The notes: a model not told the origin generated them from the sequence alone. 64,000 nucleotides of DNA from a bacterium (GCA_043803945.1 JAZDJN010000091.1:64001-128000), one strand, 5' to 3'; shown: positions 8,556 through 59,241, counted from the first letter of the stretch. Numbers and translations are program-made.

Positions 8556-8624
8556 TCTCTTAAGAAAAATAGCTGAGGGGCTATTCCTCTTTAATGAGTT
8601 ACCTCAGCGAAATAATCCGCTTCC

Positions 8625-9584: not shown

Positions 9585-9613
9585 TTGCATCAAGCTTGGA
9601 ATTGCAATATTAT
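9585..9613 (+). promoter_or_regulatory. sigma70-type promoter of the hybrid kinase
   Basis: TTGCAT-17 bp-TATTAT, about 30 bp upstream of ATG 9644. Confidence 0.5.
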
Positions 9614-9643
9614 TCGACAATTCCTCGAAGGGGATACCCTACT

Positions 9644-24138: not shown

Positions 24139-24174
24139 AGATCGATTCTGCTCTTATTGTGTTAATAAGGTAAC

Positions 24175-24205
24175 AAAAAAGCCGGTCAAATAGTGTGGCC
24201 GGCTT
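24175..24205 (-). terminator. intrinsic terminator after the ECF operon
   Basis: AAGCCGG..-loop-..CCGGCTT with an A6 tract on +. Confidence 0.65.
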
Positions 24206-24232
24206 ACCTGTCTAGAACGAGGGGAGTAAACC

Positions 24233-25900: not shown

Positions 25901-26001
25901 GGAGTCTTATGGTTACACAGAAGTTTGACAGAGCACTGAAATAAAAGTTTAAGAGCCAAACCGATATTCTCCCCTTCGAAAACGTTGAGAATCGGCACTT
26001 A

Positions 26002-29487: not shown

Positions 29488-29533
29488 GATAACCCCCTTG
29501 TTCCTATTTGCTTTCGTAATTGCTCAGTTAGTT

Positions 29534-29640
29534 TGCCACAAAGCCACTATGACACAAAGTCTTTTTAACGACATCGGAATAGTATCGAGAAAAAAAATAA
29601 ATATCTTACTTTTACTTTGTGACTTTGTGCCTTGGTAGTT
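29534..29640. repeat. REP-like inverted pair (CCACAAAG..CACAAAG / CTTTGTG..CTTTGTG)
   Basis: GCCACAAAGCCACTATGACACAAAG...CTTTGTGACTTTGTGCCTTGGTAG. Confidence 0.55.
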
Positions 29641-29773
29641 TAGTGTTTGCCTACTTTCTAATATATAAAATTCTTCTTTCGATTTCTACTCACAACACCT
29701 GATTAAGTATATCGATATCTACCGCATCCTATTGTATCCTTTGTCACACACATTCCATACGGTTATTCCTGGA

Positions 29774-36718: not shown

Positions 36719-36771
36719 TGCAATCTCATCGATCGAAAACGTTTAATCATTTTTTGTATTATTCAGCTTTT

Positions 36772-36920
36772 TTAGTAATCCTAGTACTTTCACTTATCTT
36801 TCTCCCCCTTTACCAAAGGGGGCCGGCCCGCTCCGCCGACGCGGGAGCGAGGCTGGAGGGGGATTCTACAGCAAGCTGCAGATAAATCTCATTGAGAACT
36901 CCATTGACAAATCTCCCTTC
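36772..36920. repeat. ~140-bp dispersed repeat, copy 2, with a 30-bp palindromic insert (36823-36852)
   Basis: Aligns to 4653-4775; extra CCGGCCCGCTCCGCCGACGCGGGAGCGAGG is absent from copy 1. Confidence 0.85.
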
Positions 36921-37040
36921 GAGGTTGTCCAAAATGTAGGACGAGTTGCCAACTCGTCCACGTTGAGATAGTGAAAACATTTCATATTGCGCAATCTTGA
37001 TCTATGACATACACCCATTAAGTACTTTTTGGACAACCTC
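36921..37040. mobile_element. 120-bp MITE with perfect 14-bp TIRs, containing a GTAG-type REP
   Basis: GAGGTTGTCCAAAA (36921-36934) / TTTTGGACAACCTC (37027-37040); internal GTAGGACGAGTT-GCC-AACTCGTCC. Confidence 0.75.
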
Positions 37041-37199
37041 AATATGGTCCGCGTAGACGAACAACAATGCATGAACCATTCCGTTCTCCATTTATCCAGT
37101 ATATAAACGAATGGAAAATACAATACCCTTATAGTGTGCTAATTATATTAGCATTCACGTTTCTGTTATAATTACAGCTTTAAAATATCGGTTAAAACA

Positions 37200-37234
37200 A
37201 CAAAGGCAGACACCCAGCCGGGGTCTGCCTTTGT
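37200..37234 (-). terminator. intrinsic terminator after scaffoldin A
   Basis: ACAAAGGCAGAC-loop-GTCTGCCTTTGT, followed by TGTTTT on the minus strand. Confidence 0.7.
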
Positions 37235-37260
37235 GAACAACATAAACATTCCAACACCGA

Positions 37261-38964: not shown

Positions 38965-39011
38965 CGTGTCTCCTCTGTGTGTTTATGGTCTAATTAGATA
39001 AGAGTTATTAC

Positions 39012-39035
39012 CCCGAACCGCCGAAGCGGTTCGGG
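39012..39035 (-). other. extra-stable intercistronic stem-loop (cUUCGg) with no U-tract
   Basis: mRNA CCCGAACCGC-UUCG-GCGGUUCGGG between giant gene A and scaffoldin A. Confidence 0.7.
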
Positions 39036-39054
39036 ATGATTTTCTAACTGCACC

Positions 39055-45000: not shown

Positions 45001-45969
45001 TGCACCTGCTGCAAACACATTGGCACCTGTAAAGGTACCGGCAGTCCAAGTCACTGCGCCATTCATTTGTACTGTACCAGTACTTGTATTCTCGATGCTG
45101 CCGAGGTTACCATCGGCTGTACCATCGGTGATACTCAATCCGAGGGTGTTATCGAATTTCAATGTACCAGTACCACTGTTGGTAATGTCATTCGCTCCAA
45201 CGCTAACTGCGGCACTGAAGGTTGCATTACCGCTGGTGACAACGATACCGCCAGTTGCCGTGATGGCGTAAGGTAGTGTCACTGTTGTTCCTGCAGTCTT
45301 TGCTACTGTAATGACTCCCGTTCCATAGGATGCATAGTTTGCCTCGGGGCCACCGGTGACATCGCTGCCGCCGTTATAGGTAAGGCTGAGGTTTGTGCCC
45401 TTCTGCGGAGCCTGGTTTGTAAAGGCCGATGAACCATTCATCACAATACCAATACCGGTTGCTAAACGGAAGAAGGAGGCAGTTCCGATACTCATACTGG
45501 AATTGCGCGTGCCGCTTCCCAGGGTCAGCGTGTTGCTAAGGGTAAAATATTCTGTATTGTTGGTTGTGATGATATTCAGAGTGCCACCAGAAATATCATA
45601 GGTAAATGTACCAGCACTCATTAAAACATTGTTGTTGGAGTTCAACGATCGTAGTTCGATCGTGAGTGATCCGCTGGCGGTGAGAGCGGCATACGTTGCC
45701 GTCGTGATTGCAACGTTACCACCTGCGTTATCACCACCATTGTAGGTACCAGCAAAGATAACAACATTGCCATTATTTGCGACGAGGGAGAGTCCCTTGT
45801 TAATGGTCGCAACAGGTCCAGATCCTGCTGGATTGTTGGTTGCATTGGCACCAGTGTAGGTGTCAGATCCGTTCGTCACGTCGACATACACAGTCGCGAG
45901 TTGACTGAACGCGGTCATCGTTGCCACCAACATCAGTGCAACAACCAATAAGAATGTTTTTGTATTCAT
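39055..45969 (-). CDS. giant secreted protein A: T/G/A/V/N/S-rich beta-helix-like body + 2 Ig + dockerin + cohesin-like domain + T9SS CTD (candidate S-layer/major surface protein)
   Basis: GGAGG RBS; signal peptide ..AFS-Q; cap YVD...GSD..TG..GPVATINKGL..GTY; dockerin GDISGDNAVLAEDASLAL...GDVSGNTTVNAYDASLILQ (~39740-39915); cohesin-like ITSMQFTMKFN..LTVAAAG; CTD LDQNYPNPFNPTT...NKMMLIK. Confidence 0.87.
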   Translation of the reverse strand: MNTKTFLLVVALMLVATMTAFSQLATVYVDVTNGSDTYTGANATNNPAGSGPVATINKGLSLVANNGNVVIFAGTYNGGDNAGGNVAITTATYAALTASGSLTIELRSLNSNNNVLMSAGTFTYDISGGTLNIITTNNTEYFTLSNTLTLGSGTRNSSMSIGTASFFRLATGIGIVMNGSSAFTNQAPQKGTNLSLTYNGGSDVTGGPEANYASYGTGVITVAKTAGTTVTLPYAITATGGIVVTSGNATFSAAVSVGANDITNSGTGTLKFDNTLGLSITDGTADGNLGSIENTSTGTVQMNGAVTWTAGTFTGANVFAAGANTYIVDNQSTGSIVFASSVSLANSQATAAWHATATANNGAAGVLTLGNLSAASGGAGITYVILNVNNGASGGTLNIAGGTIRGTLTNVGGATTNVTAALSVAGAFTNAGTVALGGNVLTLSGSVAHATNGGTVTATSPAGIVVSASGAASFDGGTLSNVTMSGSGTLTFGTNATTLSSLSVSAGTANISVNTTVSGAGVTTLSGGTLAVGNFTLTTGGFTMSGGIITLANNVASILNVKNDFNRTAGTFTAGAASFVTFTGTTTQQVNGGPLLQLGNLTFTNTAGTITVGQSIRASGTVTISGSTNLDMSTLNIILNAVGAAIINNGSYTAIGGGGVIFGGSTTVVGGAAVTGTTIAGTGTYSYITIDVGTANKVQMNAANNVKFNGILRMVTGDLEVNNAGGSFGPTGTTASVIRNLATGAGSTNGVIVTAGGFNTNSPVDYDLEYYGAITGDVTATVASALGGAEFTAANVRNLTITTTSAANKLILSHSATVTIKGNLKLTDNATNITEFNLPAQNLNITGSLYVGRGGLISGGNAANPITLTGDNRSHTVIGQITAAGILIETGNGCTLVGTTSTSSNTQSQLNSFSFEPADNGYSFTSTDLKVVSGNLTLQGVSTKTGATATFTMNGTSSTLTGNLVVGNATLGPNASVTIKGSSTSVDGGNLTVSNGTLTFTRGGALTTVAGNVTLTAGKLILGSNVIIAGSTSQVAGNIENGGFNYQQNGSGASPDYLRTGAGTFTGAGYLIFNETAAAIDFTPGAAFSVANLEFAGTGGNGITINASFTVSGVLKHTNAAVTLGATNITLSGTNYTFTAGSYTLGAAGALIVTGATVTFDGNGNPTLPNLTLNTDGTVTVNRSSTPSDRTITVGNVAAGVFTMTKGTLALGANDLSLANGAGTDAFVRTVGTITASATGEVIFSGGAAQFFKPGVDLTIPNLTIATTVGGVQNSEVTDNLLIVSGTLKLSGAGALLIDASKLKIGDGGTVIRTLTTSTVTNTVVFGTNTNVEYSGAEAAAIATGNELSAAVFNFTVNRTVGGGVNDQVDMGKDVTVSGTLYLQAGLLDETTKAITIAAGGTLEIGTGNFEGSGPDSPTVTSYYLVYSGGAAVTSTAEQLQTAATLLGLTVKTTNTVLTPHASATVTNVTINATGGGIQLNTVGGLTRNLTITGNLAVTAGNFITVAWTTAGTSVPKVVFQGTTFQTITVPAAGLTLPSGVDGNADGDYIDVGAGETPPVDVQVNSAATADVDKKVTLGGGNVTMGTGSNVIFTKGVIVTTVDFVWTLIQGNHPLTNKPTQGFSRSVATGDFSHFVGNVRKYVNNSTGTSIDRSVVTFPVGTMPASVGYYRPLSVFFKNTPQSAATITVSHVNSRPGGENGFKILSKKQDGSDLNLTNYPGFFWSVKSDIPLAPSYVFDIEAQAEGYAEYVADAIQNVRLIRRDSGNYNNQWLEQKNYNTGTRLYDNSTVNLTWPVVKAIDATGGITTQGSLFTYSQINKAPTFTTMPADVPKNEGETVELTWVAVDYDLGGDAVTMAKVLAPEGASALAAGKITWAIPYTFATKATPSVTTNFVVSATDTYGPLTAYDTVVVTVNNVNRAPVFTAVTAQTIKWTERLNVTLAASDLDTDALTYAFDSVTPAPATATNLPALTGTALTWQPEYLDATKTYAVKVSVTDGVAPAVEQTFNVTVNRARIKGDISGDNAVLAEDASLALQHAVGLITITDPEALWAGDVSGNTTVNAYDASLILQKVAGYPVVFAPAALGKSEASVGSIEWKNPVAKADAVTMGVKVSDDARNITSMQFTMKFNAAIATVNEVASKLPQDWTLLYKVEDGTLTVAAAGLTPVTGEAAVVSFKLKNKENRLTVSGEGFLNDGIGQTMDATEISLVPSEFGLDQNYPNPFNPTTTIKYRIAQDAAVNLVIYNMQGQKIRSVVAQEQKAGYYSIVWDGRNDAGQSVASGLYLYRVQAGSFVASNKMMLIK

Positions 45970-46355
45970 TTAATCCTCCATTATAGAGTATTGTTAATTA
46001 GTACTTCAAAAAAAACTTAAATCATTTCCCACTATTCTCTCGCGCCGGGGAGTCGCGAAAGTGAATCCTGAATTGTTGTGATCCAGGATCCGAACCCGAA
46101 GGGAAAACTTCGGGATGAAAAAAAATCAACTAGAATTGATAGCAGTTCTCTTCATCGATAGACTCCTATGCAGTGAGAGATACATGTTGATTGGCGCATT
46201 CAGAATGGGGAACAGAAATCTGAAATTTTTCTTTTGAAGCATCATTCCGCAGTACATAGCAACAGTAATTTCGATGCATCTCTAAATTTTTTGTTGTAAG
46301 CGTTTTGGTCACCAACCCTTTACCGCCCGCAGTCTGGGTGCCAAAATGTGAAGCA

Positions 46356-46384
46356 AATATATGAACATTCCAAGTTGCTGTCAA
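46356..46384 (-). promoter_or_regulatory. proximal sigma70 promoter of giant gene A
   Basis: Minus strand TTGACA-17 bp-TATATT (continues TG, so it also fits the Bacteroidota TAnnTTTG box). Confidence 0.7.
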
Positions 46385-46562
46385 GCATTTTTTTAGGCAA
46401 ACCATTGATTTTCCTATAGCTATGAATCCCTTGCCTAAAGCGAAACACTACTCCTCTTGAGTATCTTGTTGGGGAACATTAAGGAACGGGAGTTGGGGAA
46501 CTGAAATCTCCCGCTTTCTTACCCACAGCTTTTTTACTCTTTTCGCTGTGGTCACTGGGATA

Positions 46563-46591
46563 AGTATAATCAATTCAGGTTCGTTTGTCAA
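46563..46591 (-). promoter_or_regulatory. distal sigma70 promoter of giant gene A
   Basis: Minus strand TTGACA-17 bp-TATACT. Confidence 0.7.
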
Positions 46592-46664
46592 GAGCCTGAG
46601 GGTTAAATTATTCAAATAAATCGCACTGTGTGAGCGGGGTCAAATGAGCGAAAATCAAGATAAT

Positions 46665-46745
46665 ATGAGGGTATGAGCGTAAGAGAGTATGAGAATGAGA
46701 GGTTGAGAGTGTGAGAGGGGGAGACTTGGAGAGAGGGAGAATAAG
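46665..46745. repeat. purine-rich degenerate tandem repeat, ~8-bp period (GAGAnnnn)
   Basis: ATGAGGGT ATGAGCGT AAGAGAGT ATGAGAAT GAGAGGTT GAGAGTGT GAGAGGGG GAGACTTG GAGAGAGG GAGA. Confidence 0.6.
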
Positions 46746-46790
46746 AATTATGAAACTTTCAACCTGAAACTTACACCCTTCCCTCCTTTC

Positions 46791-49700
46791 CTACCTCATC
46801 TTCACAAGCTTCTCGATCCAGTCGAATCTCTCCTCACCAAACCTGCCAGTAATCTTATAGAGATAGACTCCGTTAGCAATCTCATTTCCATCCCTATCTC
46901 TTCCATCCCAGCGCATTCGATTCAGACCAAAACGGAGTTCCATTTGCTGCACCTTTATCTCCTGGATCAGGCGACCCGCGATGGTAAATATTTTTACTGC
47001 TATCTCTTCAGGAATCTTTGAGCCAACGATATTAAATGTAAAATCTGTCGCCAGGTGAAATGGATTGGGGTAATTGAAAATGTCCACCACTTGATTCGTT
47101 TCATCCACCCGAAACGAGATCCTTGCTGCATTGGTGTCGGCAAAGTTGCCAGCTACATCAACCACTTGTACCGACAAAAGATGTTCTCCACTCGTGAGCT
47201 GCGGACGAACGATAAGCGTTGCCTGTGAACCTCCATTCCCCTGCTGAACGACATTTTCTGAAGTTGGAGCAGAATGAATTTTCCTGTCATCAAGCCTTAA
47301 TTCAATCATATTGGGATCTACTATTCGCATTGGGACATTATCAATGAAATCAATGCGGATTTCAGGACGGGCCGAAACATAATCACCCTCGAGAATATGC
47401 TGGCCATCGAATGTAATTTCGATTGAAGGACGCACCGTATCCGAACTCACAATAATTGACAGCGCATAAAGATTATTTGACCGATAGAGTTCAGATAATC
47501 TGTTCTCCGGATCAATAGAGATCATGAGAGTGTGACTCCCTTTTCTACCAGCGGTGTTGAATATCGATTTGAATGCAGAAGCAGAATTCGGAGGTATAGA
47601 AGGAACGACAATGGTATCAAGCGGTATGATCCACTTCCCCTGGAGATGAGCGGTAGCAACAACAGACACACTATCGACCTTCTGCCCTCCGACATTATAG
47701 ACAGAACCATTCAGGATAACATCTTCACCCTCGATTACGGTATCCTGTGAAACGGAGACAACCTGGTAGTTCACTGCTAATTCAGCGGGCGGCTCGAGTG
47801 AAACACTCCATTGTTTTAGCAACGGTGATATTCCGGAAGCATTCGCGAAAAGGTCTGCCTTTATATTGATGGTCGGATAGATGGACGCTGGAATGGATGC
47901 CAGCGATATCGAGGTCTCTGGTGAACGGGAGATCAATGGTTCGACTTCACCATTCTTTTTTCTACCGATGACACTGACCGCAATTTGCGACCCATCTTCC
48001 AGATACTTATCTATTATAAGATTCAACCACTTTCCCGCCGGACCGATATCAGGAGAGATGAGTGATCCCGAGTTCTCCTTCCGTGAGAAGAGCGTATCAA
48101 TGACAGCACGGCCCGTATATGCCTTTCTCCATTGCTCAAACGCCGAGCCAGCCCGCGCACCCTTCCAGCCAATAAATGCCCAGGAATCCCTCAGCTTCAG
48201 GCTATCGATAAAATGGCTTCCAAATGACCTAATAGCCGCGCGAGCTCCAGAAGTTAGCTGCAAAGCACCATCATCAACTACGAGCATCACCACAAGTTTT
48301 CCCGAATTTATTATTGCCAGTGCCATCTGCAAAGAATCTGAATGCGATGAAAGATAATTGGTGTCATACATCCGAATAAACTCAGGAGTGAATGTGACAG
48401 AATCCAGGACAGCAAGCGTAATGCCGCGGGAAAAAGTATTGGGAAGAATGTTCGATCCATCAAGTTCGAGAGCCCCAAAAGAACCATCTCCGAATCCCGA
48501 CGATGTCACTCGAACACGAATGACACGCCCCGCAATCTGCATCTCATTCCGACCTGTCAATTCTGTATGAAGAAATTCACTCTGCACAAAACTCAATGAA
48601 TCGTTTTGCCTCCATTGTACACCCTCCTGTTTTGTGAGAAAGAATTTCCCCTGGGAGACTGAAGCCTCCATTCCAGGCAAACCGACACGCCAGAAGTAGT
48701 ATCGTTCGGCCGGCAAAGCAGGAAGATCAAATGAGGTAACAACGTTCCCCATTTTACTCTCCAGCCGCAGCGGATTCCCAAATCCTTCACTGGAATCGAT
48801 GTCCAGAGCAATGATATCGCTCCCATCCGGCGGTTTCAGGGCGGGATTCAGCACAATAAATTTCTTCACAAACTGAGAATAGTTGGGTAAAGGACTCACC
48901 ACCTTCAGTGTCCTCGAGAGAACATTCAATTGAAGAGAAGCCGTATTATCCGATTCACTGATTTCATCCAGACGGTTTTCTGAGTCTCCCATAATAGTAA
49001 AGCAATGGAGCCCCGGTTTACCCTTGACAGGATAGGCAAGAGAAATGGTGTCTGAATATCTCGGGAGCTTACAGGTTATTGTAGTCTCAATTTTTATTCC
49101 CTGGTATTGATGCAGCCACTTCACGCTCAAGGAATCGGCAGTTACCAATCCAGTATTGAACAGCGGAACACTGAGCAACACTTTCTCATCTTCATCTGTC
49201 GGGGTGGCAGGGATTGCATTGATGGCATCGCCCCGCAGAATAATATTTGGTTTTTGAGGAAGGGCCAATTGAACTATCGGATCGCCAAGGAGTGTGTTCG
49301 TCAACATCATTACTCTATTATGGAGGCTCGACACCCCGCCCGATTCATTACTCCGTTTAATCTTTGCCAGCAAATGTGCTTTTCCGATTTCTCGTACTCC
49401 GTTCCGCAGCAACTCACGATAAAAATATTTTGGGAGCGTCAGGGCTGAGAGTGAAGAGCCAAGCGCGGAATTGCCGATATACGCGATCGCAGAGCCTGAT
49501 TCACCCAGCGTAAAGAGCTCGCCAAATGATCTGATGTCCGGCTCAGCAAATTTCGCGGTTGAACAGCCAAAATCGGAGATCAAGGCAGATCGTCCGCGGC
49601 TATTCTGTAATTGAGCAGGATCGCCAATCCCATTATCCCACGTTTGCGTTCCGCTATGGCCGATGTAGTTGATAACAACTCCTCCCCGATTGAGCGCTTC

Positions 49701-52184
49701 ACGAATCTGGGAAGAAGTATATGGGCCAAAATTCGTTTGAGGATTGTCCGTTTTATAAAAGTGCATTGCCGTTCCACCGATGGGTGGAGGCGTAATCATC
49801 TCTTTAATAATCTCCTCCTGAACCATCTTGAACGACTCAACCTGCCCCGGAGTATTTGGATCTCCACCGGAAAAGAGAAGAAAGCTCTTATTCCAATCGT
49901 CAAAATCTTCCGTATCATATCGTTTGATTTTCTCGATGACCCGTTTCAGTTCTATTATGGAGTTGACCGGTAGGCGTCCGACACAAAGCTGGGGAATCGG
50001 CAATGAGTCGTCCAACACCGCGAACCAGGGATCACTGACAGGGTGGCCATACGATGGGACAGTCGGGATAGGAGCAACCGATGGATTTACAGGTGGAATT
50101 GCATTCTTATAATCATACGTAGCATCTCCGACGAGGAGCAGGTACTCTGGAATCGGCCCCAACCAACGTGTGGTCGATTTGATATATTCCCGGATCGATT
50201 CCGGAGTCGGGTAACCAAATCCAAATTCATTATAGATGTCATCAACATCAACCAATGCGATCTTGCGTTTGTACTGAGACTCGATGGTCGAAGCATACGA
50301 CTTACATTCCGCGATGTATCGCTTATGTGTAATCAAGAGATACTCTGCTGATCGTTGTGAATCACGAAGATTCGGGAAGTGAATACTGCTCTGGGTCAAG
50401 GGGATTTTAATCTTTGCAGGTGAGCATAGCAAATATTTATCTCCGTTCGATACGCTATCGCGAAATGTAATTGTATATGGAGGCCCGGATGAGTGTTCAA
50501 GCACTGAAATTCGTTTCGGAGATGGGCTCAACTTATAAAGAGCGGCGGCGGGTGTTGTAAGTCCTGAAACTCGCACAACCCGAAGGCCATCATTCGGGAG
50601 ATTTGTGAATGAAAAAAAAAGCGTATCTCCCACCGCACTCAACGAACGCGGATACTCAACATCGATCCAATCCACAATCATATAATTAATTGAAGAAGCA
50701 GTTGGCAGCGAGTAGACCCTAATGGCGTTCAGTCCATTCGTTAGGAGTTCAGAGTTAAAGCTCGCCTCGATGATCTCCTGAGAAAACCTGGTGACATCCT
50801 TAGCGGCGAGCGTGTCTGAAGAATTCACCCGCACACGAATGCGATGTGCCGGTTGGCTCTCATCTGCAGCCCAACTTGCCAGGCGAACGAAGAACCTTGC
50901 CGCGGGATAATTTCTGAAGAGATTATTCACCTGAAATGTCGCCTGAAAAGTTGATTTTGCAGAGAGCCAGCTCCACCCCCAAACATCCCCGGCCAGCCAA
51001 CGAGGATCCTGGTGCAGCAGCAAATTATCTCCAACAAATTGCAGAAACGAATTTTTCTCAAGGTGTTGCACCTCAGTATACCAGCTCAGTGTATCAGCAG
51101 CTCCACGGATACCCTCATTGGTACTATATCTGAGGCCCTCTTCCCCGCCCCATGTTAAGCAGTAGTACGATGTGTCGGTATAGCGGTTGAGAAAATTTGG
51201 GTACTCACCCGATGCTGTGGCAATCTTCCTGTACTCTTCCAGTTCATAATTCCGAAAGCCCGGGAATTCCAAATAATCGCCTGGCTCAAATTTTCCATCT
51301 TCCTCACCGGAGCAATAGAGGGGTAATTCCTTTCCTTTATTAAAGAGATGAAATGTTTTCGGATCAATCGAACCAATCTCGGAGATTTCTCTTTGCAAAT
51401 TTTCGTAACGGAGTCGATAGAGTCCATCCTCTGCAATCTTGAGGAGAATGTAGTTCTTCGTGTAGTCGATCCAGTTGCCGGTGGAGTCATTCCACGGCAG
51501 AGGCGATTTGGCAATACGCGGAAGATCCGCGGGATTAGCGACAAGTTCGTTTACGAGTAGATCGTTTGCTGAAGGCTGATTGTTGTGAGAGGAAGGAACT
51601 TCGAGTTTCTGGAATTCGAATCTCGCCTCAATCCGATCGGTGAATTGCAGGAGTGATCCGTTCCAGCGATAAGGGGAGAGGCGGATGCGAGCCAAACGAT
51701 ATCCCCGGTACCAGGCATACCCATACACTTCGAGCAAGGGTATGTTCTCCTGCTGTTCACACTGTCGCAGAAGTACTGTCACCGGAGCTAGCAATGAGGA
51801 ATCATGAGTCTGATGGTAACCGATTGGTATTGAAATCGAATCGGGAACAAGCAATGAGCTCTGAACTTGTCCAATTTGAGATTTGAGAGTGACACCGGGT
51901 GGTATTGCGAGGAAGAATTCCTGTGATGGAAACGCCACCCGTTCAGATGCAATACGAGGTAATGCCGTTCCGATTGCAGCGATGCCCCCTGCGAAATGCT
52001 GATGATACGGAATGAGCTCAACATTCAATACTAATCCTGATGGAAAATTCTTTGTCGTAATTGTACCCCATAAGAAACCCTTTTTGGCGGAGATGGAATC
52101 AGACACCTGAGAAAAAGCCGTCAATGTCAGAAATTGAAAATACACAGTGAGCAGTCGACCGAGCCGCCACAAATGATTATTCAT
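46791..52184 (-). CDS. C25 (gingipain/PorU-like) cysteine peptidase with CARDB and ILEI-like domains and a T9SS CTD
   Basis: Signal peptide; KIAEDGLYRL, YTDTSYY.L, YLLITH, VDDIYNEF..G, YLLLVGDATYD, SDPWF, VGRLP, NYIGHSG (His), FGCST (Cys), LLGDP; ILEI-like DDG..RDSWAFIG.KG; CTD NYPNPF...IFTIAGRLI..WDGRD..GNEIANGVYLYK. Confidence 0.9.
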   Translation of the reverse strand: MNNHLWRLGRLLTVYFQFLTLTAFSQVSDSISAKKGFLWGTITTKNFPSGLVLNVELIPYHQHFAGGIAAIGTALPRIASERVAFPSQEFFLAIPPGVTLKSQIGQVQSSLLVPDSISIPIGYHQTHDSSLLAPVTVLLRQCEQQENIPLLEVYGYAWYRGYRLARIRLSPYRWNGSLLQFTDRIEARFEFQKLEVPSSHNNQPSANDLLVNELVANPADLPRIAKSPLPWNDSTGNWIDYTKNYILLKIAEDGLYRLRYENLQREISEIGSIDPKTFHLFNKGKELPLYCSGEEDGKFEPGDYLEFPGFRNYELEEYRKIATASGEYPNFLNRYTDTSYYCLTWGGEEGLRYSTNEGIRGAADTLSWYTEVQHLEKNSFLQFVGDNLLLHQDPRWLAGDVWGWSWLSAKSTFQATFQVNNLFRNYPAARFFVRLASWAADESQPAHRIRVRVNSSDTLAAKDVTRFSQEIIEASFNSELLTNGLNAIRVYSLPTASSINYMIVDWIDVEYPRSLSAVGDTLFFSFTNLPNDGLRVVRVSGLTTPAAALYKLSPSPKRISVLEHSSGPPYTITFRDSVSNGDKYLLCSPAKIKIPLTQSSIHFPNLRDSQRSAEYLLITHKRYIAECKSYASTIESQYKRKIALVDVDDIYNEFGFGYPTPESIREYIKSTTRWLGPIPEYLLLVGDATYDYKNAIPPVNPSVAPIPTVPSYGHPVSDPWFAVLDDSLPIPQLCVGRLPVNSIIELKRVIEKIKRYDTEDFDDWNKSFLLFSGGDPNTPGQVESFKMVQEEIIKEMITPPPIGGTAMHFYKTDNPQTNFGPYTSSQIREALNRGGVVINYIGHSGTQTWDNGIGDPAQLQNSRGRSALISDFGCSTAKFAEPDIRSFGELFTLGESGSAIAYIGNSALGSSLSALTLPKYFYRELLRNGVREIGKAHLLAKIKRSNESGGVSSLHNRVMMLTNTLLGDPIVQLALPQKPNIILRGDAINAIPATPTDEDEKVLLSVPLFNTGLVTADSLSVKWLHQYQGIKIETTITCKLPRYSDTISLAYPVKGKPGLHCFTIMGDSENRLDEISESDNTASLQLNVLSRTLKVVSPLPNYSQFVKKFIVLNPALKPPDGSDIIALDIDSSEGFGNPLRLESKMGNVVTSFDLPALPAERYYFWRVGLPGMEASVSQGKFFLTKQEGVQWRQNDSLSFVQSEFLHTELTGRNEMQIAGRVIRVRVTSSGFGDGSFGALELDGSNILPNTFSRGITLAVLDSVTFTPEFIRMYDTNYLSSHSDSLQMALAIINSGKLVVMLVVDDGALQLTSGARAAIRSFGSHFIDSLKLRDSWAFIGWKGARAGSAFEQWRKAYTGRAVIDTLFSRKENSGSLISPDIGPAGKWLNLIIDKYLEDGSQIAVSVIGRKKNGEVEPLISRSPETSISLASIPASIYPTINIKADLFANASGISPLLKQWSVSLEPPAELAVNYQVVSVSQDTVIEGEDVILNGSVYNVGGQKVDSVSVVATAHLQGKWIIPLDTIVVPSIPPNSASAFKSIFNTAGRKGSHTLMISIDPENRLSELYRSNNLYALSIIVSSDTVRPSIEITFDGQHILEGDYVSARPEIRIDFIDNVPMRIVDPNMIELRLDDRKIHSAPTSENVVQQGNGGSQATLIVRPQLTSGEHLLSVQVVDVAGNFADTNAARISFRVDETNQVVDIFNYPNPFHLATDFTFNIVGSKIPEEIAVKIFTIAGRLIQEIKVQQMELRFGLNRMRWDGRDRDGNEIANGVYLYKITGRFGEERFDWIEKLVKMR

Positions 52185-53314
52185 TTACTCAATCCTCTCC
52201 CTGTAGTGATTATCGATTGATAGTATTCTATCGTCTCATCGATACACCGGTCATACCCAAAACATTCTTCATTCTTTTTTTTCGCTGCGCTCCCAAGTCT
52301 ATGAGCTTCCTCTGGATGCTCAAGAAGGAATTGGATTGCAGAGGCCAGTGCGGGCGGGTCTTGTGGCGGCACGAGTATCCCAGTTCTGAAATGTGTAATG
52401 AACTCCGATATGCCGCCCACATTAGTGGCAATGTGCGCCTTACCAAGGCTGCCAGCTTCAAGAAGAGTAAGGGGTAATCCCTCCTGGAACGAGGCAAGGA
52501 TAAAAAAATCGGCAAGCGAACCAACCGGCTGGAAGCTTATCGATGAAGGAAGAAAGCGTATAATGTCGCTAAGCTTCTGCTCAACAATTCTCTGTGCGAG
52601 CAATTGCTTCCTCTCACCATCCCCGACGAACAGCACTACGGCATGCTCCCGGCGAAGTATGTCAGCGTTCATACGAATTGCCTCGATAATGGACCGATGA
52701 TCCTTTTCGGGAGAGAGTCGGGCAACACAGGCTATCACCTTGTTTCTTGCCGATAATCCAAGCTCCATTCTTTTTTCCACCAGTTCATAAGTCGTCATTG
52801 GTTTCAGGGCGGGTACACCGGGGAGAATGGTTCTTACAGCACTCACCTTCTTATGAAAGCTGCCAACCAGTTCCTGATTGATTCTCGCGGAGATGGCGAT
52901 GGTATTATCTCCAAATATTGAACAGTGATGGAGGTTGTTGAACAGGCTGTGACACGTTGAGAGATGAATGGTGCCTGTGATTCTTGCGATGATTCTGCCA
53001 AGCAGATCGGAGAATCGTTTATGGGTATGAATGATAGTGATCCTATGCGATTGCACAACGTGGATGAGCGGGAAGAGAGAGTAAGAAAGCAAAGCGATCT
53101 TCTTCATTCTCTCTGTTGGCATATGTGTATGAAGAGGAATGAATGGGATAGGGCACTCAAGCGACTCCCGCAGCGGCCCATCGATTGCTGCCACGACCAC
53201 TTCTATTCCGCGTGAATATAATCCATTGGCCAAGAGTGTCACATGACGGGGCACTCCGCCAATCTCCAGATCATCCGTGAGGAGAAGAAGTTTCATTGGC
53301 AATGAGTGATGCAT
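52181..53314 (-). CDS. glycosyltransferase family 4
   Basis: GGVPRH, VARLSPEKDH, VGDG, S.QEGLPLTLLEA (EX7E), TNVGGI.E; ATGA overlap with the C25 gene. Confidence 0.93.
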   Translation of the reverse strand: MHHSLPMKLLLLTDDLEIGGVPRHVTLLANGLYSRGIEVVVAAIDGPLRESLECPIPFIPLHTHMPTERMKKIALLSYSLFPLIHVVQSHRITIIHTHKRFSDLLGRIIARITGTIHLSTCHSLFNNLHHCSIFGDNTIAISARINQELVGSFHKKVSAVRTILPGVPALKPMTTYELVEKRMELGLSARNKVIACVARLSPEKDHRSIIEAIRMNADILRREHAVVLFVGDGERKQLLAQRIVEQKLSDIIRFLPSSISFQPVGSLADFFILASFQEGLPLTLLEAGSLGKAHIATNVGGISEFITHFRTGILVPPQDPPALASAIQFLLEHPEEAHRLGSAAKKKNEECFGYDRCIDETIEYYQSIITTGRGLSK

Positions 53315-54567
53315 TGCTTTTCATCTTGTCCTTTGAGCATTCTCTCACAGAGTTGTTGAAAACGTACAGTATGGCATTCCCAGGAGAAATGTTCTTTTAT
53401 AAACTCTCTGGCTTCCCGGCCCATCTCACGTATCTCATCTTTCTTATCCATCAGAGCTTCAAACTGTGAAAGCCACCGATAGGGAGTCAATTCGGGAAGC
53501 GGAATGATTCCTTTTCCCATAGAGTAAATGTTTGAAAGAATACCTACTTCTGATGAACCGATAACCGGCACACCGGCCGCAAGCGCCTCGAGTGCGGCCA
53601 AACTCATGGTCTCATACTCGGATGCCAGTGCCAGAGCATCGTACTTCCCGAGCGACTTCATCAAAACCGGATGTGGCTGCCATCCCAGAAATGTTACATG
53701 GGCTTGAAGATTCAACGACATCGAGAGGAATTTGAGCCATCGCAATTGCCAGCCATCACCTGCAACGCTAAGATGAATCCTCTTTCTCACTGAGGATTTC
53801 ATGCTGGCAAGTGCATAGAGCAAGTGCTCGATATTCTTTCCGGGGGAATCGAGCCGTGCAATCGTCAGAATCTGGAGCACGGATGGATCAATGTTAGGGT
53901 CTTTAGATTCAGAGGGAATATGAACTCCTAATGGTATCTCCACGATAGTTTTATCGCAAAAGAGACTTGATATTTCGCGAGTGTGAGGCTTTGAGAGAGT
54001 AACGATACAATCCGCTTGATCGAGGATGGAGATGATTGCCCGGCAGGCTTTTCTCGCGGCAGATTTTCGGAAGGCTCCCGGCCCATCGTGATTTATGATG
54101 ACAAAGGGAATTAAGTGTTCCCGTGCAATTCTCCCAACGATGTTTCCCACAGGGTAAGCAAAATGTTCGAGGATCAAATCATACTGGTTCGCTCTGAGAA
54201 GCGACTCGATTGTCGATTCGAGCTGTCGGCCGACGAGTATGGGCAATATTTCCCAGGTGAGAGAATAGGGCAGATTAAATATCCTCTTATGAAAAACCAG
54301 CCCTCCCCCGCCTGTGCACATCCCGGTTTTTACTGCCCGGTTAGCCTGGATCCATTTTTGTTCTCTTCTAGATCCCAAAAGATTTTTCAATCTCGGCAGC
54401 ATATTGATAACCGAAAGCACATCAACCAAGGCGAACTGTTCTAGCGCATGTACATGATCAATGAACCAGCCCGAGAATGACCAATCTCCCTCAATCGGAT
54501 AGCGGTCCATGACAACCAAGATTCGTGGTAAAGTCTTATGCATACTCATCACTCCATCTTCTGCCAT
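53293..54567 (-). CDS. glycosyltransferase family 4
   Basis: IARLD..GKNI, AGDG, FLGW, SEYETMSLAALEALAAGVPVI. Confidence 0.9.
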   Translation of the reverse strand: MAEDGVMSMHKTLPRILVVMDRYPIEGDWSFSGWFIDHVHALEQFALVDVLSVINMLPRLKNLLGSRREQKWIQANRAVKTGMCTGGGGLVFHKRIFNLPYSLTWEILPILVGRQLESTIESLLRANQYDLILEHFAYPVGNIVGRIAREHLIPFVIINHDGPGAFRKSAARKACRAIISILDQADCIVTLSKPHTREISSLFCDKTIVEIPLGVHIPSESKDPNIDPSVLQILTIARLDSPGKNIEHLLYALASMKSSVRKRIHLSVAGDGWQLRWLKFLSMSLNLQAHVTFLGWQPHPVLMKSLGKYDALALASEYETMSLAALEALAAGVPVIGSSEVGILSNIYSMGKGIIPLPELTPYRWLSQFEALMDKKDEIREMGREAREFIKEHFSWECHTVRFQQLCERMLKGQDEKQCITHCQ

Positions 54568-55526
54568 TTACCATATCTCATGCAAATCCAGTCTACTATT
54601 GCATCGAGAAAAGCCCGCAGCGCTGCACCTTTTCCTCCCCCCTCTTTCTGAAGCACCACGCGATAGAGCTTCCAAGGAATGGCAGCCAACTGAAGTGAAA
54701 GGAAGAGCATTCTTTCCCACCACTGGAATATCAGAGTTCCGAAGAGAAGATGGTTGCGGGTCCCGTAATAGACCTTTATCATATCTCCCGAATGTGAACT
54801 TGCCGATCCATAGTGGTGTATTGTGCAGCGAGGAATTATAGCAAATCGAAATCCCCTTAGAGCAAGTCGGACACAGAATTCGGTATCGTCATAATAGAGG
54901 AAGAAGCGTTCATCAAACTCGCCGTACACCTCAACGAGACTTCGCCTGAAGAGAAAGCATCCGCCGGAAATCATCACAAGCTTGCTGCAGTCTACCCGAT
55001 GCTTTTCGATATCGGTTGCTGTAACCGGGTGCAGAATTTTTGTCCATCGGCGAGGGGGTTGAAGATAAATCGCTCCGGAGAATTCTTCTCTCCCACTACG
55101 GCTGTTGATATAGCGGCCCGTTACCCCTGCTGCATTCTCCGGAGCCGAAAGCATATGACGAACAAATTCTCCTAAGCAATCAGGTGCAACGACAACATCG
55201 TTATCGAGTTTCCAAAAAAATTCAACATCTGCATGAGCAGCGCGCAGCCCCTGGTTATATGCTGCAGGGGCTCCAAGATTTTCAATATTCTTAATGAGTG
55301 CGTTGTACCGAAATCCGCGAAGACTCATCTCCTTGAAGAACTTTTCGATTGCCTCTACAGAACCATCAGTCGAGCCATTGTCAATCACGAGAACTTGTAA
55401 ACACTCTTTTGGATAATGAAGACCGCTCAAGGATTGAAGACAAGCAAGAATATGCTGCCTTCCATTCCAATTGGGAATCAGGGCGCAGACCATCGGGAAA
55501 CGGTGCAAGGACTTCTCCAAAGTCAT
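54549..55526 (-). CDS. glycosyltransferase family 2
   Basis: IPNWNG, IDNGSTDGS, NLG...AYNQG, LDND, FDERFFLYYDDTEFC.R, YY..RN. Confidence 0.92.
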   Translation of the reverse strand: MTLEKSLHRFPMVCALIPNWNGRQHILACLQSLSGLHYPKECLQVLVIDNGSTDGSVEAIEKFFKEMSLRGFRYNALIKNIENLGAPAAYNQGLRAAHADVEFFWKLDNDVVVAPDCLGEFVRHMLSAPENAAGVTGRYINSRSGREEFSGAIYLQPPRRWTKILHPVTATDIEKHRVDCSKLVMISGGCFLFRRSLVEVYGEFDERFFLYYDDTEFCVRLALRGFRFAIIPRCTIHHYGSASSHSGDMIKVYYGTRNHLLFGTLIFQWWERMLFLSLQLAAIPWKLYRVVLQKEGGGKGAALRAFLDAIVDWICMRYGKWQKME

Positions 55527-56980
55527 AGATCACCTCTCTGGAAAAACTCTTTTCGAAAGGCAAGCAGGGAGCAGAAAAGAAAGGCGATGATCCCGAAAAC
55601 GTCCTGCATTACGGTGGGACGATATCCCACAGTGTGGAGAAACCCAATTCTGATGCACCAAGTAGAAAAAACGAGACATATTCCTTTGAACATGGAATGG
55701 ACAACAGATAAGAGTACAATGGAAAGCGGAGCCTCCCTCCGCATGAGCCAAAGATAAAGTACAAACTCAAGGAGAAACGTCATGGAAAAAATCGCTGATG
55801 CCGCGAGAGCTCCGTAACGAGGGATCATCAGCAGATTCATCCCGCCATTAAAGGTGAACAAGACGATGGAAACGATGAGAATTTTCCGTTGTGCATTGAG
55901 CGCAATGAAGTAGCTGCCAATAATCACACTTATGCTTCGAAAGATCATTCCAATAAGAAGAATGCTCAGATAGAAAGTGAGATTCTCATACTCTTTAAAA
56001 AAGACGGAGTGAAGGAGGGATGATCCTCCCGTCAGAAACACCCCAATCCCCGTCAAGAGTATCGAAAGTGTCGTTTTCACAAATGAGGAAAGATGGCCGT
56101 ATAACTGTTCCTTCGGAAGAGTTGATTTTGAAAATACCACCAGCGCAACTGCTCCGGCAGGAGTAATGAGCGCAAACAACGCTTCGCAGATTCGGCAGGC
56201 CACTCTGTACTCTCCCAATTCTCCAAGTGTACGATAGGAACCCAGTAAGAGTGAATCGATGTTCGCCAGAAAAATCATGCATGCCATCGCGAGCACTAGC
56301 GGCAAGCTTGACCGGAGAAGAGCGGTTCCATTGTCTATGAGCATGGTCAATGGAATAAATTCGATACAGGATGGCATTGACCGGTATGCCATAATTGCCA
56401 CGACGGCTGCACTCACTACTGTGGCCACACCAACAATATTCAAATCATGCGGTGATGAGAGAAAAAGAACGACCACCATCATATTACAAACCGCACCGGC
56501 AACCATGGCCACGGTCGCTTCACGAAACCTGCTCGATCCTTTGAGTGCCTGCAGAAGGGAGATATTTTGGAACAAGAGCGCGACACAACAGAAGTAAAGC
56601 AGATGGCGCAACTCAACAGATGTATTCCAGTGCATGATGCCAACCACGATGAGTAAACTCACAAACGCCCACATGCCAACACGGAGAATGAGAAATGCCC
56701 CGATCACACCGGATGATCGGCTGCGGTTTCCGGAGATGGATGAGAGAAGAGGAACATCGAGCTGAAATCCTGCGAGGAGATGGGCAAATGCCATAATCGA
56801 CCAGGCAAAGGAGACGATGCCAAATGCTTCTTTCCCTAACCGGTTTGCCATCACAAGCATCGCCACAAATGAAAATACCCGCACAGTTCCTTCTCCTATC
56901 GACATCAACAGCACTGGAGATATTCTCCTGCTAGAGAGCATCAAGCGATGCTGAACCTGACTATTCTCAACCATTATCAT
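55523..56980 (-). CDS. wzx: Wzx-type oligosaccharide flippase
   Basis: About 12-14 TM helices; RLG...FG, NIDSLLLG, LGEY, N.LMIPRYG..AA. Confidence 0.85.
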   Translation of the reverse strand: MIMVENSQVQHRLMLSSRRISPVLLMSIGEGTVRVFSFVAMLVMANRLGKEAFGIVSFAWSIMAFAHLLAGFQLDVPLLSSISGNRSRSSGVIGAFLILRVGMWAFVSLLIVVGIMHWNTSVELRHLLYFCCVALLFQNISLLQALKGSSRFREATVAMVAGAVCNMMVVVLFLSSPHDLNIVGVATVVSAAVVAIMAYRSMPSCIEFIPLTMLIDNGTALLRSSLPLVLAMACMIFLANIDSLLLGSYRTLGELGEYRVACRICEALFALITPAGAVALVVFSKSTLPKEQLYGHLSSFVKTTLSILLTGIGVFLTGGSSLLHSVFFKEYENLTFYLSILLIGMIFRSISVIIGSYFIALNAQRKILIVSIVLFTFNGGMNLLMIPRYGALAASAIFSMTFLLEFVLYLWLMRREAPLSIVLLSVVHSMFKGICLVFSTWCIRIGFLHTVGYRPTVMQDVFGIIAFLFCSLLAFRKEFFQRGDL

Positions 56981-56993
56981 AAAACCAAATGCA

Positions 56994-58319
56994 TTACTGA
57001 TTTAGCAAAGAGAATTGGACATGGCTGGAAGAATGGAGTACACCCAACTCCAAGCCATCCCGAATTGAAGCGACGGTTCCCTGGCAATTCCATCGCGCAT
57101 TCCTTCCAGCCAAATAAATTTGATGAGAAGCCAGCTTGGTACCCACCTCCTCGACCCAGACAGATCCTGGGTACCGCCAGGCATAGGCCATTGGAATCCA
57201 ATGTGGATCTGCAATCTCACATTCCCCGATAAATTCCCAATCCTGTAATTCATGAATGATGGTATTGCACTCGTCATCAATTTGGCGACTGGTCAATTCA
57301 ATGACAGAGGGAAAACTTTTTTCAACATAGAGACTTACATGTGTTCCTTTTCCACGGTGCTGCTTCGGTAAGAACCGCTCATCGACATTACTGTAGAAAC
57401 CCACGCGATGAATTCCCGTTTTGCTCTCCGGTACATAGAGCCAATGTTCAAGAGGACACCGTTCTCCTTTGCGCGCACCAACATTCAGCAGTAAGAGAGA
57501 TGTATGTGGATCGGGAGGAGATTCAGTACTGAGTCCCGTTGCTTTCACCATGAAGTGCAGCGGCAGAGAGGAGATTATTTTTGAATATGGTTGTATTGTA
57601 CCTTCGGCAAGCTCAATTTCTTTCGCAGTCAGAATAATTCGGACAACCGGGCAAGAAGTTTTTAGATAACACTGAGCGGCTAAGCGGCGGAACAGATCGT
57701 CGAATCCATAGTCGGGATAAGCGAACATCGAATGATATCCGATCTTTCTGCCCGCACTTTTCCTATCTGGAAGTATCTCTCCTCTCTCAACAGGAGTCTT
57801 ATAGAAATCCTGCGGTGCGATGGATTCCCAGAGACCTGCTGTGCACAATCTGTGGTACGGGGCAAAAAACAACTCACCGAGCGTCTCTCCGAATGTAAGA
57901 GTGAGCCACTCTTTCAGTGTCGAGGCCGGTTCATTCCACGGCAAGCGGATTTCTCCGTCGATACGGTCTTTGATATTTCTTCCAAGCATGTGAAGATGAT
58001 GTTGAATGGGATAGGGTATTACACATTGTTGGCGGGTCAGGTAAACTCCGGCTCGACGATCATAAGCAGTAAGCGGGACAAATGCCCTGAGATACCGTAG
58101 AATTTTTGTGTCTGATATTGAAAGCCAATGTCCCCCTGCAATCTCAAACCGATATTCCTGTTCAGACGAAGATCTTCTTTCAGTACGAGGTTGGCCCGGT
58201 GAGAGATAATACGTTGTGCACAATCCGCCGGCGATATTGTTTTTCTCGATGATAGTAAATCCTGAGACACTGCCAGCCGCTAATCCGGCAGGCCCGGCAC
58301 CAAGAATAATGATCGGCAT
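56994..58319 (-). CDS. FAD-dependent oxidoreductase (PPO/UDP-galactopyranose-mutase-like) in glycan cluster
   Basis: GAGPAGL, EK...GGLC, FE..GGHW, F.YP..G, AGR.ARW. Confidence 0.8.
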   Translation of the reverse strand: MPIIILGAGPAGLAAGSVSGFTIIEKNNIAGGLCTTYYLSPGQPRTERRSSSEQEYRFEIAGGHWLSISDTKILRYLRAFVPLTAYDRRAGVYLTRQQCVIPYPIQHHLHMLGRNIKDRIDGEIRLPWNEPASTLKEWLTLTFGETLGELFFAPYHRLCTAGLWESIAPQDFYKTPVERGEILPDRKSAGRKIGYHSMFAYPDYGFDDLFRRLAAQCYLKTSCPVVRIILTAKEIELAEGTIQPYSKIISSLPLHFMVKATGLSTESPPDPHTSLLLLNVGARKGERCPLEHWLYVPESKTGIHRVGFYSNVDERFLPKQHRGKGTHVSLYVEKSFPSVIELTSRQIDDECNTIIHELQDWEFIGECEIADPHWIPMAYAWRYPGSVWVEEVGTKLASHQIYLAGRNARWNCQGTVASIRDGLELGVLHSSSHVQFSLLNQ

Positions 58320-58359
58320 AACAATCCTCTCTATTGTTATTGCAGAAAATCAACAGCAA

Positions 58360-59241
58360 TTATCTGAACATGCTTTTGAGCAGACTGATCAGAAACCAGG
58401 GATTGCCAATCAGATATCGTTTCCACAATCGCCGTGGCTCCTGGGAGAGCCGGATTAGCCACTCACATCCGGCTCTCCCCATCCATCCAGGGCACCGCCA
58501 CTTAATGCCGGAAAGATATTCAAAGCAGGAACCGCCATTGAGAAAAATCCTCGCGCCCGCTTTTGTATAATTGTTCAGGATCCATTGTTCCTGCAGTGGC
58601 ATGCCCATTCCAACGACAATGACATCTGGATGCACTGCTTGAATTGAAGAGAGAAGAGCCTTTCCATCATCCGAAAAATATCCATGATGATACCCCGCAA
58701 TGGTGAGTTTTGGATACCACGATGAAATTCTCCTGACTGCTGTTTCAATAACTGTCGGACTTGACCCTAACAGAAAGACTGAACATCCCGCCTCCTGGCA
58801 GATTGAAAAGACATCATGAATCCAATCGGCCATGACTATTCGTTCCGGTATGTTCTTTCCAACGATCCACCCGCCGAATCGGACACCCTGGCCGTCGCAA
58901 TAGGTCAGCAATGAGTTATTAAGATAGTCAGCAAACCATGTTAGTTGATGTGCAAGGTGAACAGCGTGGATATTTATATAGCTTATCCAGCCTCGCTGGC
59001 GTTGATGCAGAAGCTGGGAGAATTTAGTGGTGAGCATCCGGCGTGATAATGGATGAAGATGAACACCCAATATGTCAACCGATGTCTGCTCCTTGCAGAC
59101 AGGTAACCAAGGTGAATGACGGAGCGGATGACTACGAAGTTCGTCGGTGATGACTCCTTCATACCGCAGATCGGATATTCTCATAATCCCTCCCCAGGAA
59201 ATATGGTGAATAACAAACGTACGGATGAATCCGCTTTTCAT
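58360..59241 (-). CDS. WecB/TagA/CpsF (GT26) glycosyltransferase
   Basis: DGQGV, ERI..AD, HHGYF, VGMGMPLQE.W, EWLIRL.QEPRRLW.RY; alternative start 59184. Confidence 0.93.
   Translation of the reverse strand: MKSGFIRTFVIHHISWGGIMRISDLRYEGVITDELRSHPLRHSPWLPVCKEQTSVDILGVHLHPLSRRMLTTKFSQLLHQRQRGWISYINIHAVHLAHQLTWFADYLNNSLLTYCDGQGVRFGGWIVGKNIPERIVMADWIHDVFSICQEAGCSVFLLGSSPTVIETAVRRISSWYPKLTIAGYHHGYFSDDGKALLSSIQAVHPDVIVVGMGMPLQEQWILNNYTKAGARIFLNGGSCFEYLSGIKWRCPGWMGRAGCEWLIRLSQEPRRLWKRYLIGNPWFLISLLKSMFR

Follow-up and report, generated by a model that had tools for sequence, protein, structure and literature searches.

A PorU-like C25 peptidase gene coupled to a Wzx-dependent glycan operon: a candidate sortase with its own anchor glycan

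Gene content of the operon

To our knowledge, the fixation of type IX secretion cargo to the cell surface is understood only in a few oral and soil Bacteroidota. The present study concerns a 64,000-nucleotide stretch of bacterial DNA (GCA_043803945.1 JAZDJN010000091.1:64001-128000; hereafter the window), on the minus strand of which seven head-to-tail open reading frames (ORFs) at 46791-59241 place the gene of a PorU-family C25 cysteine peptidase at the end of a set of glycan-synthesis genes. A preliminary description had reported this order, running tightly packed from a WecB/TagA-type glycosyltransferase to the C25 gene, and it was borne out by the ORF calls and by family assignment with Pfam and NCBIfam. 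The genes are as follows (clade A is defined in the next section):

58360-59241, minus strand: WecG/TagA/CpsF-family (GT26) glycosyltransferase, operon gene 1 (PF03808, 176 bits; TIGR00696, 112 bits, cut-off 69)
56994-58319, minus strand: UDP-galactopyranose-mutase-like flavoprotein, 441 residues (PRK07208, E 1e-20; UDP-galactopyranose mutase structures)
55523-56980, minus strand: Wzx-type flippase (PF01943, 67 bits, cut-off 28.2)
54549-55526, minus strand: GT2 glycosyltransferase (PF00535, 81 bits)
53293-54567, minus strand: GT4 glycosyltransferase (PF00534, 79 bits)
52181-53314, minus strand: GT4 glycosyltransferase, stop codon overlapping the C25 start (PF00534, 100 bits)
46791-52184, minus strand: PorU-family C25 cysteine peptidase, clade A, 1797 residues

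These seven genes are one operon. The distances between them, taken from the ORF coordinates, are +40, +13, -4, -19, -22 and -4 nucleotides from WecG to C25. The last of these is an ATGA at 52181-52184 in which the stop codon of the second GT4 gene overlaps the C25 start, and direct reading confirmed this earlier observation. A purine-rich stretch, GGAGAGGA, ends 8 nucleotides upstream of the C25 ATG.

The second gene had been described as an FAD oxidoreductase, which is correct and can be made more precise. Its 441-residue product has a GxGxxG motif at the N-terminus and was without match in a Pfam scan, and all 14 of its matches to solved structures at E <= 1e-6 are UDP-galactopyranose mutases (best 4dsg and 3ukk, E ~1e-8). 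The protein is named UDP-galactopyranose-mutase-like because these are its only solved relatives, and it is most likely a mutase producing a furanose sugar. A genome scan identified at least 73 loci related to the C25 region (L001-L073), in which genes were called simply as the longest ORFs. An orthologue of the flavoprotein is present in L031 (43% identity), and 10 other related loci have a bacterial UDP-galactopyranose mutase (Glf) gene within their glycan cluster, the Glf label coming from a custom hidden Markov model (HMM) built from two seeds that pass TIGR00031.

All six genes upstream of C25 have been assigned to families, and no polymerase, ligase or initiating transferase is among them. 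Of the components of a Wzx/Wzy cluster, the operon has the Wzx flippase, and neither a Wzy/O-antigen-ligase-family gene nor an initiating phosphoglycosyl transferase; a tblastn search of the window with a Wzy_C protein query also gave no match. In the Porphyromonas gingivalis model, a single non-polymerised pentasaccharide linker is made by four transferases on undecaprenyl pyrophosphate, flipped and attached to O-LPS (LPS, lipopolysaccharide; PMC13086638). The window operon likewise has four transferases and a flippase and no polymerase, with a sugar mutase in addition. Given that it contains no unassigned gene and no polymerase, it matches this model of a single-copy, four-transferase linker (A-LS).

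The C25 protein and its relatives

The C25 protein has a signal-peptide-like N-terminus, and its further features are listed below in order from the N-terminus:

51540-51929, minus strand: C25 prodomain-like segment, residues 86-215 (BLASTP E 2e-5 to the Propeptide_C25 region of L034)
48945-51479, minus strand: PorU-type N-terminal region and catalytic domain, residues 236-1080 (NF052324, 364 bits; NF033707, 309 bits; PF01364, 195 bits)
49269-50342, minus strand: Pfam C25 domain (PF01364), residues 615-972
49656-49658, minus strand: His843 (YIGHSG)
49563-49565, minus strand: Cys874 (FGCST)
48156-48428, minus strand: ILEI/FAM3-like domain, residues 1253-1343, candidate glycan-binding module (PF15711, 56.5 bits)
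47466-47762, minus strand: CARDB immunoglobulin (Ig)-like domain, residues 1475-1573 (PF07705, 33 bits)
46845-47072, minus strand: type IX secretion type A C-terminal sorting domain, residues 1705-1780 (TIGR04183, 26 bits, cut-off 23)

The catalytic histidine and cysteine named in the preliminary description are present, and both are invariant across 38 aligned homologues. They are retained in all clades examined, save for a single group-B row in which neither is present in the aligned segments. When aligned to PorU by phmmer, the histidine pairs with the GH of PorU and the cysteine is offset by one column from the PorU cysteine.

Among solved structures, the window protein matches PorU of P. 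gingivalis best (6za2, E 1e-15), and its catalytic and C-terminal regions both align there, the sorting domain with residues 1009-1135. PorU is also the top solved structure for a profile of 38 clade-A sequences (E 6e-28), and neither the profile nor the window protein matched the catalytic domains of the gingipains RgpB and Kgp at E <= 0.01. Sequence comparison therefore supports one half of the earlier label "PorU/gingipain-like", namely that the protein is PorU-like, and not the other, although it shares with the gingipains the C25 family, a sorting domain and a prodomain-like N-terminus. In the last of these regions, the clade-A profile matches a 214-residue chain of Lys-gingipain W83 (5mun, E 1.2e-5), which we take to be the Kgp pro-domain. 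In NCBIfam the protein matches the PorU2 N-terminal model at E 1e-108 and the PorU model at E 6.6e-92. It has the features of PorU on paper, including the C25 His/Cys dyad, the PorU-type N-terminal region and a sorting domain of its own, yet is filed as a member of neither family. It exceeds P. gingivalis PorU by about 640 residues, has the ILEI domain and the prodomain-like N-terminus in addition, and scores below the PorU cut-off.

The search of a protein database, in which 8000 candidates were scored, gave 700 relatives of the window protein at E <= 0.001, the closest being 51-53% identical. Among the 120 matches listed, most are 1730-1830 residues long, with a minority of about 2330-2450 residues or truncated, and the named ones come mostly from Ignavibacteria or "Bacteroidota" bins. 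A phylogeny was made by quick search, unrooted, from 60 proteins of at least 1400 residues over the columns of window residues 236-1080, omitting 15 shorter or split-gene loci. The PorU2 clade (n = 17; Chitinophagia, Saprospiria and Flavobacteriia) is split from the other 43 rows with a support of 100 in the SH-like approximate likelihood ratio test (SH-aLRT), and the window protein lies outside it, in clade A (n = 31, SH-aLRT 100), with L001-L003 as nearest kin. The third part of the tree (n = 12, fully supported) consists of group B (eight proteins of about 1905 residues, from L034, L035, L037, L041-L043, L045 and L046), L049 and L052, and the tandem pair of L050. A further 11 short loci were put in clade A by BLAST identity alone. 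Group B had 521 matches; among the 120 listed, all have the C25 propeptide domain and none an ILEI domain. Both types occur in assembly NAT134, clade A as L023 and group B as L034. PorU orthology was judged by model scores and by bit scores against the PorU structure 6za2. Because group B is the closer to PorU and the two occur in one assembly, clade A is, by sequence, a paralogue type, as the preliminary description had proposed, and probably not the PorU orthologue.

The window protein may also be compared with PorU2, its best NCBIfam match, for which, as for PorV2, no paper using the name was found in the literature searched. Both are long (about 1700 residues) second PorU-like proteins with a sorting domain, but PorU2 forms a clade of its own and lacks the ILEI domain.

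Several variants of the C25 gene were observed among the related loci. A tandem pair (1612 and 1643 residues, sisters in the tree) is encoded at L050:9932-19715, with WecG upstream. The clade-A genes of L025, L033, L036 and L044 are broken into two or three ORFs, which may be frameshifts or assembly errors, and the apparent downstream sorting-domain genes of L025, L033 and L036 are C-terminal fragments of the split C25. A long clade-A variant of about 2390 residues occurs at L018:9785-16948 and in L031 and L008; in the L018 protein the ILEI and CARDB stretches each occur twice, pointing to an internal duplication of its C-terminal module.

The ILEI domain was found in 116 of the 120 clade-A proteins among the matches listed, and the four without it are truncated. 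Its matches among solved structures are FAM3B/FAM3C, the stem domain of POMGnT1 and a cell-surface hyaluronidase. The POMGnT1 stem domain has the same fold and binds carbohydrate, and by analogy the ILEI domain of the C25 protein may take over glycan binding.

The motif (D)(S/T)(A/I/L/V/M/T) is described as the established O-glycosylation motif (PMC8550257, PMC8729774). The preliminary description had noted that such sequons recur in the cohesin and dockerin proteins encoded downstream of C25, and had offered decoration of these proteins by the glycan as an alternative. The sequons are indeed present in the four proteins (D-[ST]-[AILVMT]; 2, 2, 13 and 9), but their total of 26 is at the chance level of 24.7 expected from shuffling, which leaves the decoration proposal without sequon support. 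In the C25 protein itself there are 19 against 5.4 expected (z ~6), and no other of the 33 window proteins departs so far from chance. Enrichment extends to each of the 31 clade-A proteins (z 3.4-12), with several sites at conserved columns of the clade (D576 in 31/31, D1045 in 30/31, D1481 in 29/31). This enrichment supports a different account of the operon, in which the glycan would be one for protein O-glycosylation of the Bacteroidota type and C25 itself a major, heavily O-glycosylated client rather than a user of an anchor. The operon resembles Bacteroidota O-glycosylation loci in having wzx and several transferases and no polymerase, and the motif, at three to four times expectation in C25 and in conserved columns, fits. 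Nevertheless, this account is considered quite unlikely. The D-S/T sites may be conserved for structural reasons, group B and some of the PorU2 clade, both lacking this cluster, are enriched as well, and a general glycosylation locus need not track one client gene. Furthermore, the operon differs from O-glycosylation systems in that no oligosaccharyltransferase candidate or other protein-glycan transferase was identified in it. We know of no Bacteroidota O-glycosylation locus that is tied to a C25 gene.

Linkage of C25 genes to glycan genes

The coupling of C25 to glycosyltransferase and wzx genes, first described for the window, recurs in its relatives across Ignavibacteria-type bacteria, among them a Melioribacter metagenome-assembled genome (L016) with WecG and C25 as a pair. 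The linkage sample comprised 30 clade-A loci with upstream sequence, of which up to four upstream genes each were taken (113 in total, one piece of a split C25 having been dropped). Glycosyltransferase genes adjoin C25 in 29 of the 30 loci, the exception being L027, and WecG is near C25 in 28, immediately upstream (-1) in 24 loci, of which seven have it in divergent orientation, at -2 in three and just downstream in L020. Pfam assigned 43 of the 113 genes to GT4, 26 to WecG, 19 to GT2 and eight to GT9, and labelling of the clade-A upstream genes with custom HMMs gave 97 glycosyltransferases out of 114; wzx was labelled in 19 of the 30 loci. L002 has three GT4 genes, an epimerase gene and wzx. 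In the PorU2 clade, which served as a control, only 2 of 70 upstream genes encode glycosyltransferases, and PorV2 stands at -1 in 12 of 18 loci as against none of the 30 clade-A loci. Where the upstream neighbour is on the same strand as C25 (23 loci), stop and start overlap or lie no more than 7 nucleotides apart in 10. In L024, WecG and C25 are separated by a PMT_2 (GT-C fold) gene (8407-9849).

The other C25 groups have other neighbours. Group B is found beside genes of the O-antigen-ligase family, GT9 and GT4, in some loci with a Wzi-like outer-membrane protein, and glmS is downstream in seven of eight; in L035 these are joined by genes for a PseC-type aminotransferase and a phosphoglycosyl transferase, and in L034 by a MurJ-like gene. 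A WecA/MraY-family initiating transferase is encoded directly upstream (-1) only in L049:8292-9272 and L052:8432-9481. Three separate C25 clades thus adjoin three different glycan gene sets. Wzi-like outer-membrane proteins, of a family of capsule-anchoring lectins, are encoded next to C25 in clade A as well as in group B (L018:17668-19431, L030:4816-6462, L041:7516-9186, L045:6563-8242 and L046:8032-9705).

In P. gingivalis, PorU removes the sorting domain of its cargo and couples the cargo to a linking sugar, as described in three reports (PMC4560394, PMC8545088, PMC7468200), and LPS-dependent anchoring is reported for Cytophaga (PMC12860637). On this model, the tentatively favoured reading of the window is that the operon may encode a Wzx-dependent glycan made without a polymerase together with a PorU-family C25 transpeptidase that joins type IX cargo to it. 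An initiating transferase encoded elsewhere would start a short oligosaccharide linked to undecaprenyl pyrophosphate, which the WecG/TagA-type enzyme, the GT2 and the two GT4 enzymes would lengthen, with the mutase-like flavoenzyme probably providing a furanose sugar; it is from this gene set that we infer the size and composition of the glycan, for which HexNAc, HexNAc-uronic acid and a furanose-containing chain would fit. Wzx would flip the oligosaccharide, which would then be incorporated in a surface glycolipid and might serve there as the acceptor. The C25 protein would rely on its own sorting domain for export by the type IX system, could hold the glycan with its lectin-like ILEI domain, and as a predicted transpeptidase would cleave the sorting domains off type IX cargo and couple the cargo to the glycan, much as PorU does with the A-LS linker of A-LPS in P. 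gingivalis.

Such a combination of sortase and own glycan is plausible. Exosortase (EpsH/XrtA) with its PEP-CTERM substrates is likewise a sorting transpeptidase in a polysaccharide locus, for which a glycan-related acceptor is proposed (PMC7468200), although exosortase is an unrelated inner-membrane enzyme with another sorting signal and another export route. The arrangement in the window differs from that of P. gingivalis in that the C25 gene is embedded in the glycan operon, which has no Wbp/Vim-type genes. By contrast, P. gingivalis porU presumably adjoins porV, away from the anchor-glycan genes.

Alternatively, the operon could be an ordinary cluster for surface polysaccharide or LPS O-units, beside which C25 has come to lie through the clustering of envelope genes and inheritance. 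C25 would then act either as a general sortase for type IX cargo or as a secreted protease, and make no use of the glycan. A number of observations are on the side of this explanation, weigh against the sortase-and-anchor reading, or do both. LolB1 or M23 flanks are common to 15 of the 30 loci, consistent with vertical inheritance, and because of them part of the synteny signal is inherited. Glycosyltransferase content is as variable as in O-antigen loci. Amine-donor genes are rare (one Asn-synthase-like and one ATP-grasp gene among the 113 upstream genes), and neither the operon nor the shared gene content of related clusters includes a source for an amine nucleophile comparable to the seryl group on the P. 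gingivalis linking sugar. The PorU partner genes porV, porZ and porQ are expected in the genome, porV often adjacent. In the 64-kb window, tblastn found no PorV2-like and no O-antigen-ligase-family gene, nor either of the two outer-membrane protein types known from the relatives, and PorZ matched in NCBIfam only weakly, at the C25 sorting domain. Pfam and NCBIfam did not name PorV or PorQ families in the window, NCBIfam covering 13 of the 33 window proteins and PorQ not having been searched separately. The family assignment weighs against the sortase-and-anchor reading. The window protein falls under the cut-offs of both the PorU model (NF033707, 308.8 against 420 bits) and the PorU2 N-terminal model (NF052324, 364.3 against 450 bits); with the former, the scores are 295-302 bits among clade-A relatives and 297-310 in group B, and with the latter true members of PorU2 reach 879 and 939 bits. 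Bit scores against PorU 6za2 are 91 for group B, 59 for the window protein and 38 for PorU2, and because group B resembles P. gingivalis PorU more, clade A may not be the main sortase. The comparison with PorU by phylogeny, which the preliminary description had called for, separates clade A from PorU2, but the 60 proteins of the tree include no canonical PorU.

The view of an ordinary cluster is nonetheless judged unlikely. The linkage is kept where the flanks have changed (window, L016, L018, L020, L021 and L031) and through inversion of WecG and turnover of the glycosyltransferase set. Three C25 clades stand by three glycan gene sets and the PorU2 control does not, and the close spacing in 10 of 23 same-strand loci and the lectin-like ILEI domain within C25 also argue against chance adjacency. 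If the linkage were inherited synteny and nothing more, what would be left is a PorU-like family, so far unannotated, next to genes for a surface polysaccharide.

A broader proposal is that Ignavibacteria-type bacteria might have at least two PorU-type sortases, each tied to its own glycan module, so that cargo would be held on two chemically distinct anchors. Clade A would have the Wzx-dependent operon, its in-chain ILEI domain replacing a separate glycan-delivery protein, and group B the O-antigen-ligase and LPS-core genes. This is possible but rather doubtful. In the literature searched on Ignavibacteria and type IX secretion (PorU, sortase), the sole mention was that type IX systems may occur in the phylum. 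The anchor-glycan genes of P. gingivalis took decades to identify. Should this proposal hold, the clade-A operon would be the first example of a sortase operon that itself spells out the linker glycan of a type IX anchor. If a sortase-like gene does keep company with a compact glycan operon throughout a class, the anchor chemistry, the division of labour between the two paralogues and the role of the in-chain lectin-like domain would become directly testable, and a predictable handle for surface display in these environmental bacteria would be gained.

Cohesin and dockerin genes and other neighbours

Four genes on the same strand lie 3' of C25, all of them encoding type A sorting domains:

45970-46790: gap of 820 bp between C25 and the first dockerin and sorting-domain gene (ORF coordinates)
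39055-45969 and 29774-36718, minus strand: two giant paralogues with dockerin and C-terminal sorting domain
37261-38964 and 27604-29487, minus strand: two proteins with cohesin and C-terminal sorting domain

The giants (2304 and 2314 residues) are 30% identical, each with a C-terminal dockerin-like segment and a sorting domain. For the 2304-residue product of the first downstream gene, Pfam gives the sorting domain only, and its dockerin-like segment (about residues 2010-2081) is detectable only through the 2314-residue paralogue (E 1e-16). The 567-residue protein has two cohesins and the 627-residue protein one. Taken together, 27604-45969 would be a type-IX-exported cohesin/dockerin set in an Ignavibacteria-type genome.

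The preliminary description placed C25 directly upstream of these genes and proposed that it was their dedicated sortase. They are indeed the next genes downstream, but, given the 820-bp gap and three promoter-like minus-strand matches within it (a count not above shuffle expectation in the scanned region), they are probably a separate transcription unit. Among relatives the association is not conserved. A search of all ORFs in the 73 loci (E <= 1e-3) with the cohesin, dockerin and other non-sorting parts gave one weak Ig-domain match and no homologue of either the cohesins or the dockerins. Pfam analysis of 91 downstream genes from 33 loci likewise found cohesin and dockerin absent from the 25 most frequent families, behind which singletons may be hidden. 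In L018 and L030, C25 is followed by a GT2 gene and a gene for a Wzi-like protein and then by genes for an extracytoplasmic function (ECF) sigma factor, an anti-sigma factor, a 162-residue protein and a NifS-like protein. This last block is 55-62% identical to window 22972-25900 (61-62% for the ECF sigma factor), and the slot between it and C25 is occupied in the window by the cohesin/dockerin genes and a GAF-SpoIIE phosphatase gene (block region 22972-27279). Relative to L018 and L030, the cohesin/dockerin block therefore sits in a variable slot by gene-order comparison.

Because of the absence of homologues in the 73 loci, the variable slot ahead of the conserved block and the 820-bp separation, the proposed link between C25 and these proteins is not supported in the genomes compared, and a dedicated sortase for them appears very unlikely, a view close to refuted by synteny. 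Lack of such synteny in relatives was what the preliminary description itself had named as grounds for rejecting the link. In its favour are the sorting domains of all four same-strand neighbours and a small conserved sorting-domain protein that follows C25 in 6 of 33 loci with downstream sequence, for which reason cargo genes beside a clade-A C25 are not rare. The cohesin/dockerin proteins are probably ordinary type IX cargo rather than dedicated substrates of C25.

The small sorting-domain proteins (157-320 residues) share the N-terminal motif LPVELVYF...WGTATE.NN.GFE and are encoded between C25 and a protein of about 450 residues:

L011:15355-16014
L012:15099-16058
L021:14785-15462
L023:15370-16155
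L024:15237-15992
L028:14944-15414

The protein of about 450 residues follows C25 in 20 clade-A loci (e.g., L015:15181-16533 and L023:16209-17540) and is not encoded in the window. It is probably an outer-membrane barrel, since it has a signal peptide and a terminal aromatic residue and matches no Pfam family. A profile search of solved structures was empty (best E 0.47) and the Atlas gave unnamed clusters only. It was considered as an analogue of PorV or of Wzi, but showed no profile similarity to either, with hhalign probabilities of 4.8% against PorV2 and 0.5% against the Wzi-like proteins.

At the far end of the window, 1-5331 contains accessory genes of a cbb3 oxidase (FixP-like, FixG-like and DsbD_2), a YdjC-like gene and a tRNA-Val gene (5256-5331), which are unrelated to the C25 operon.

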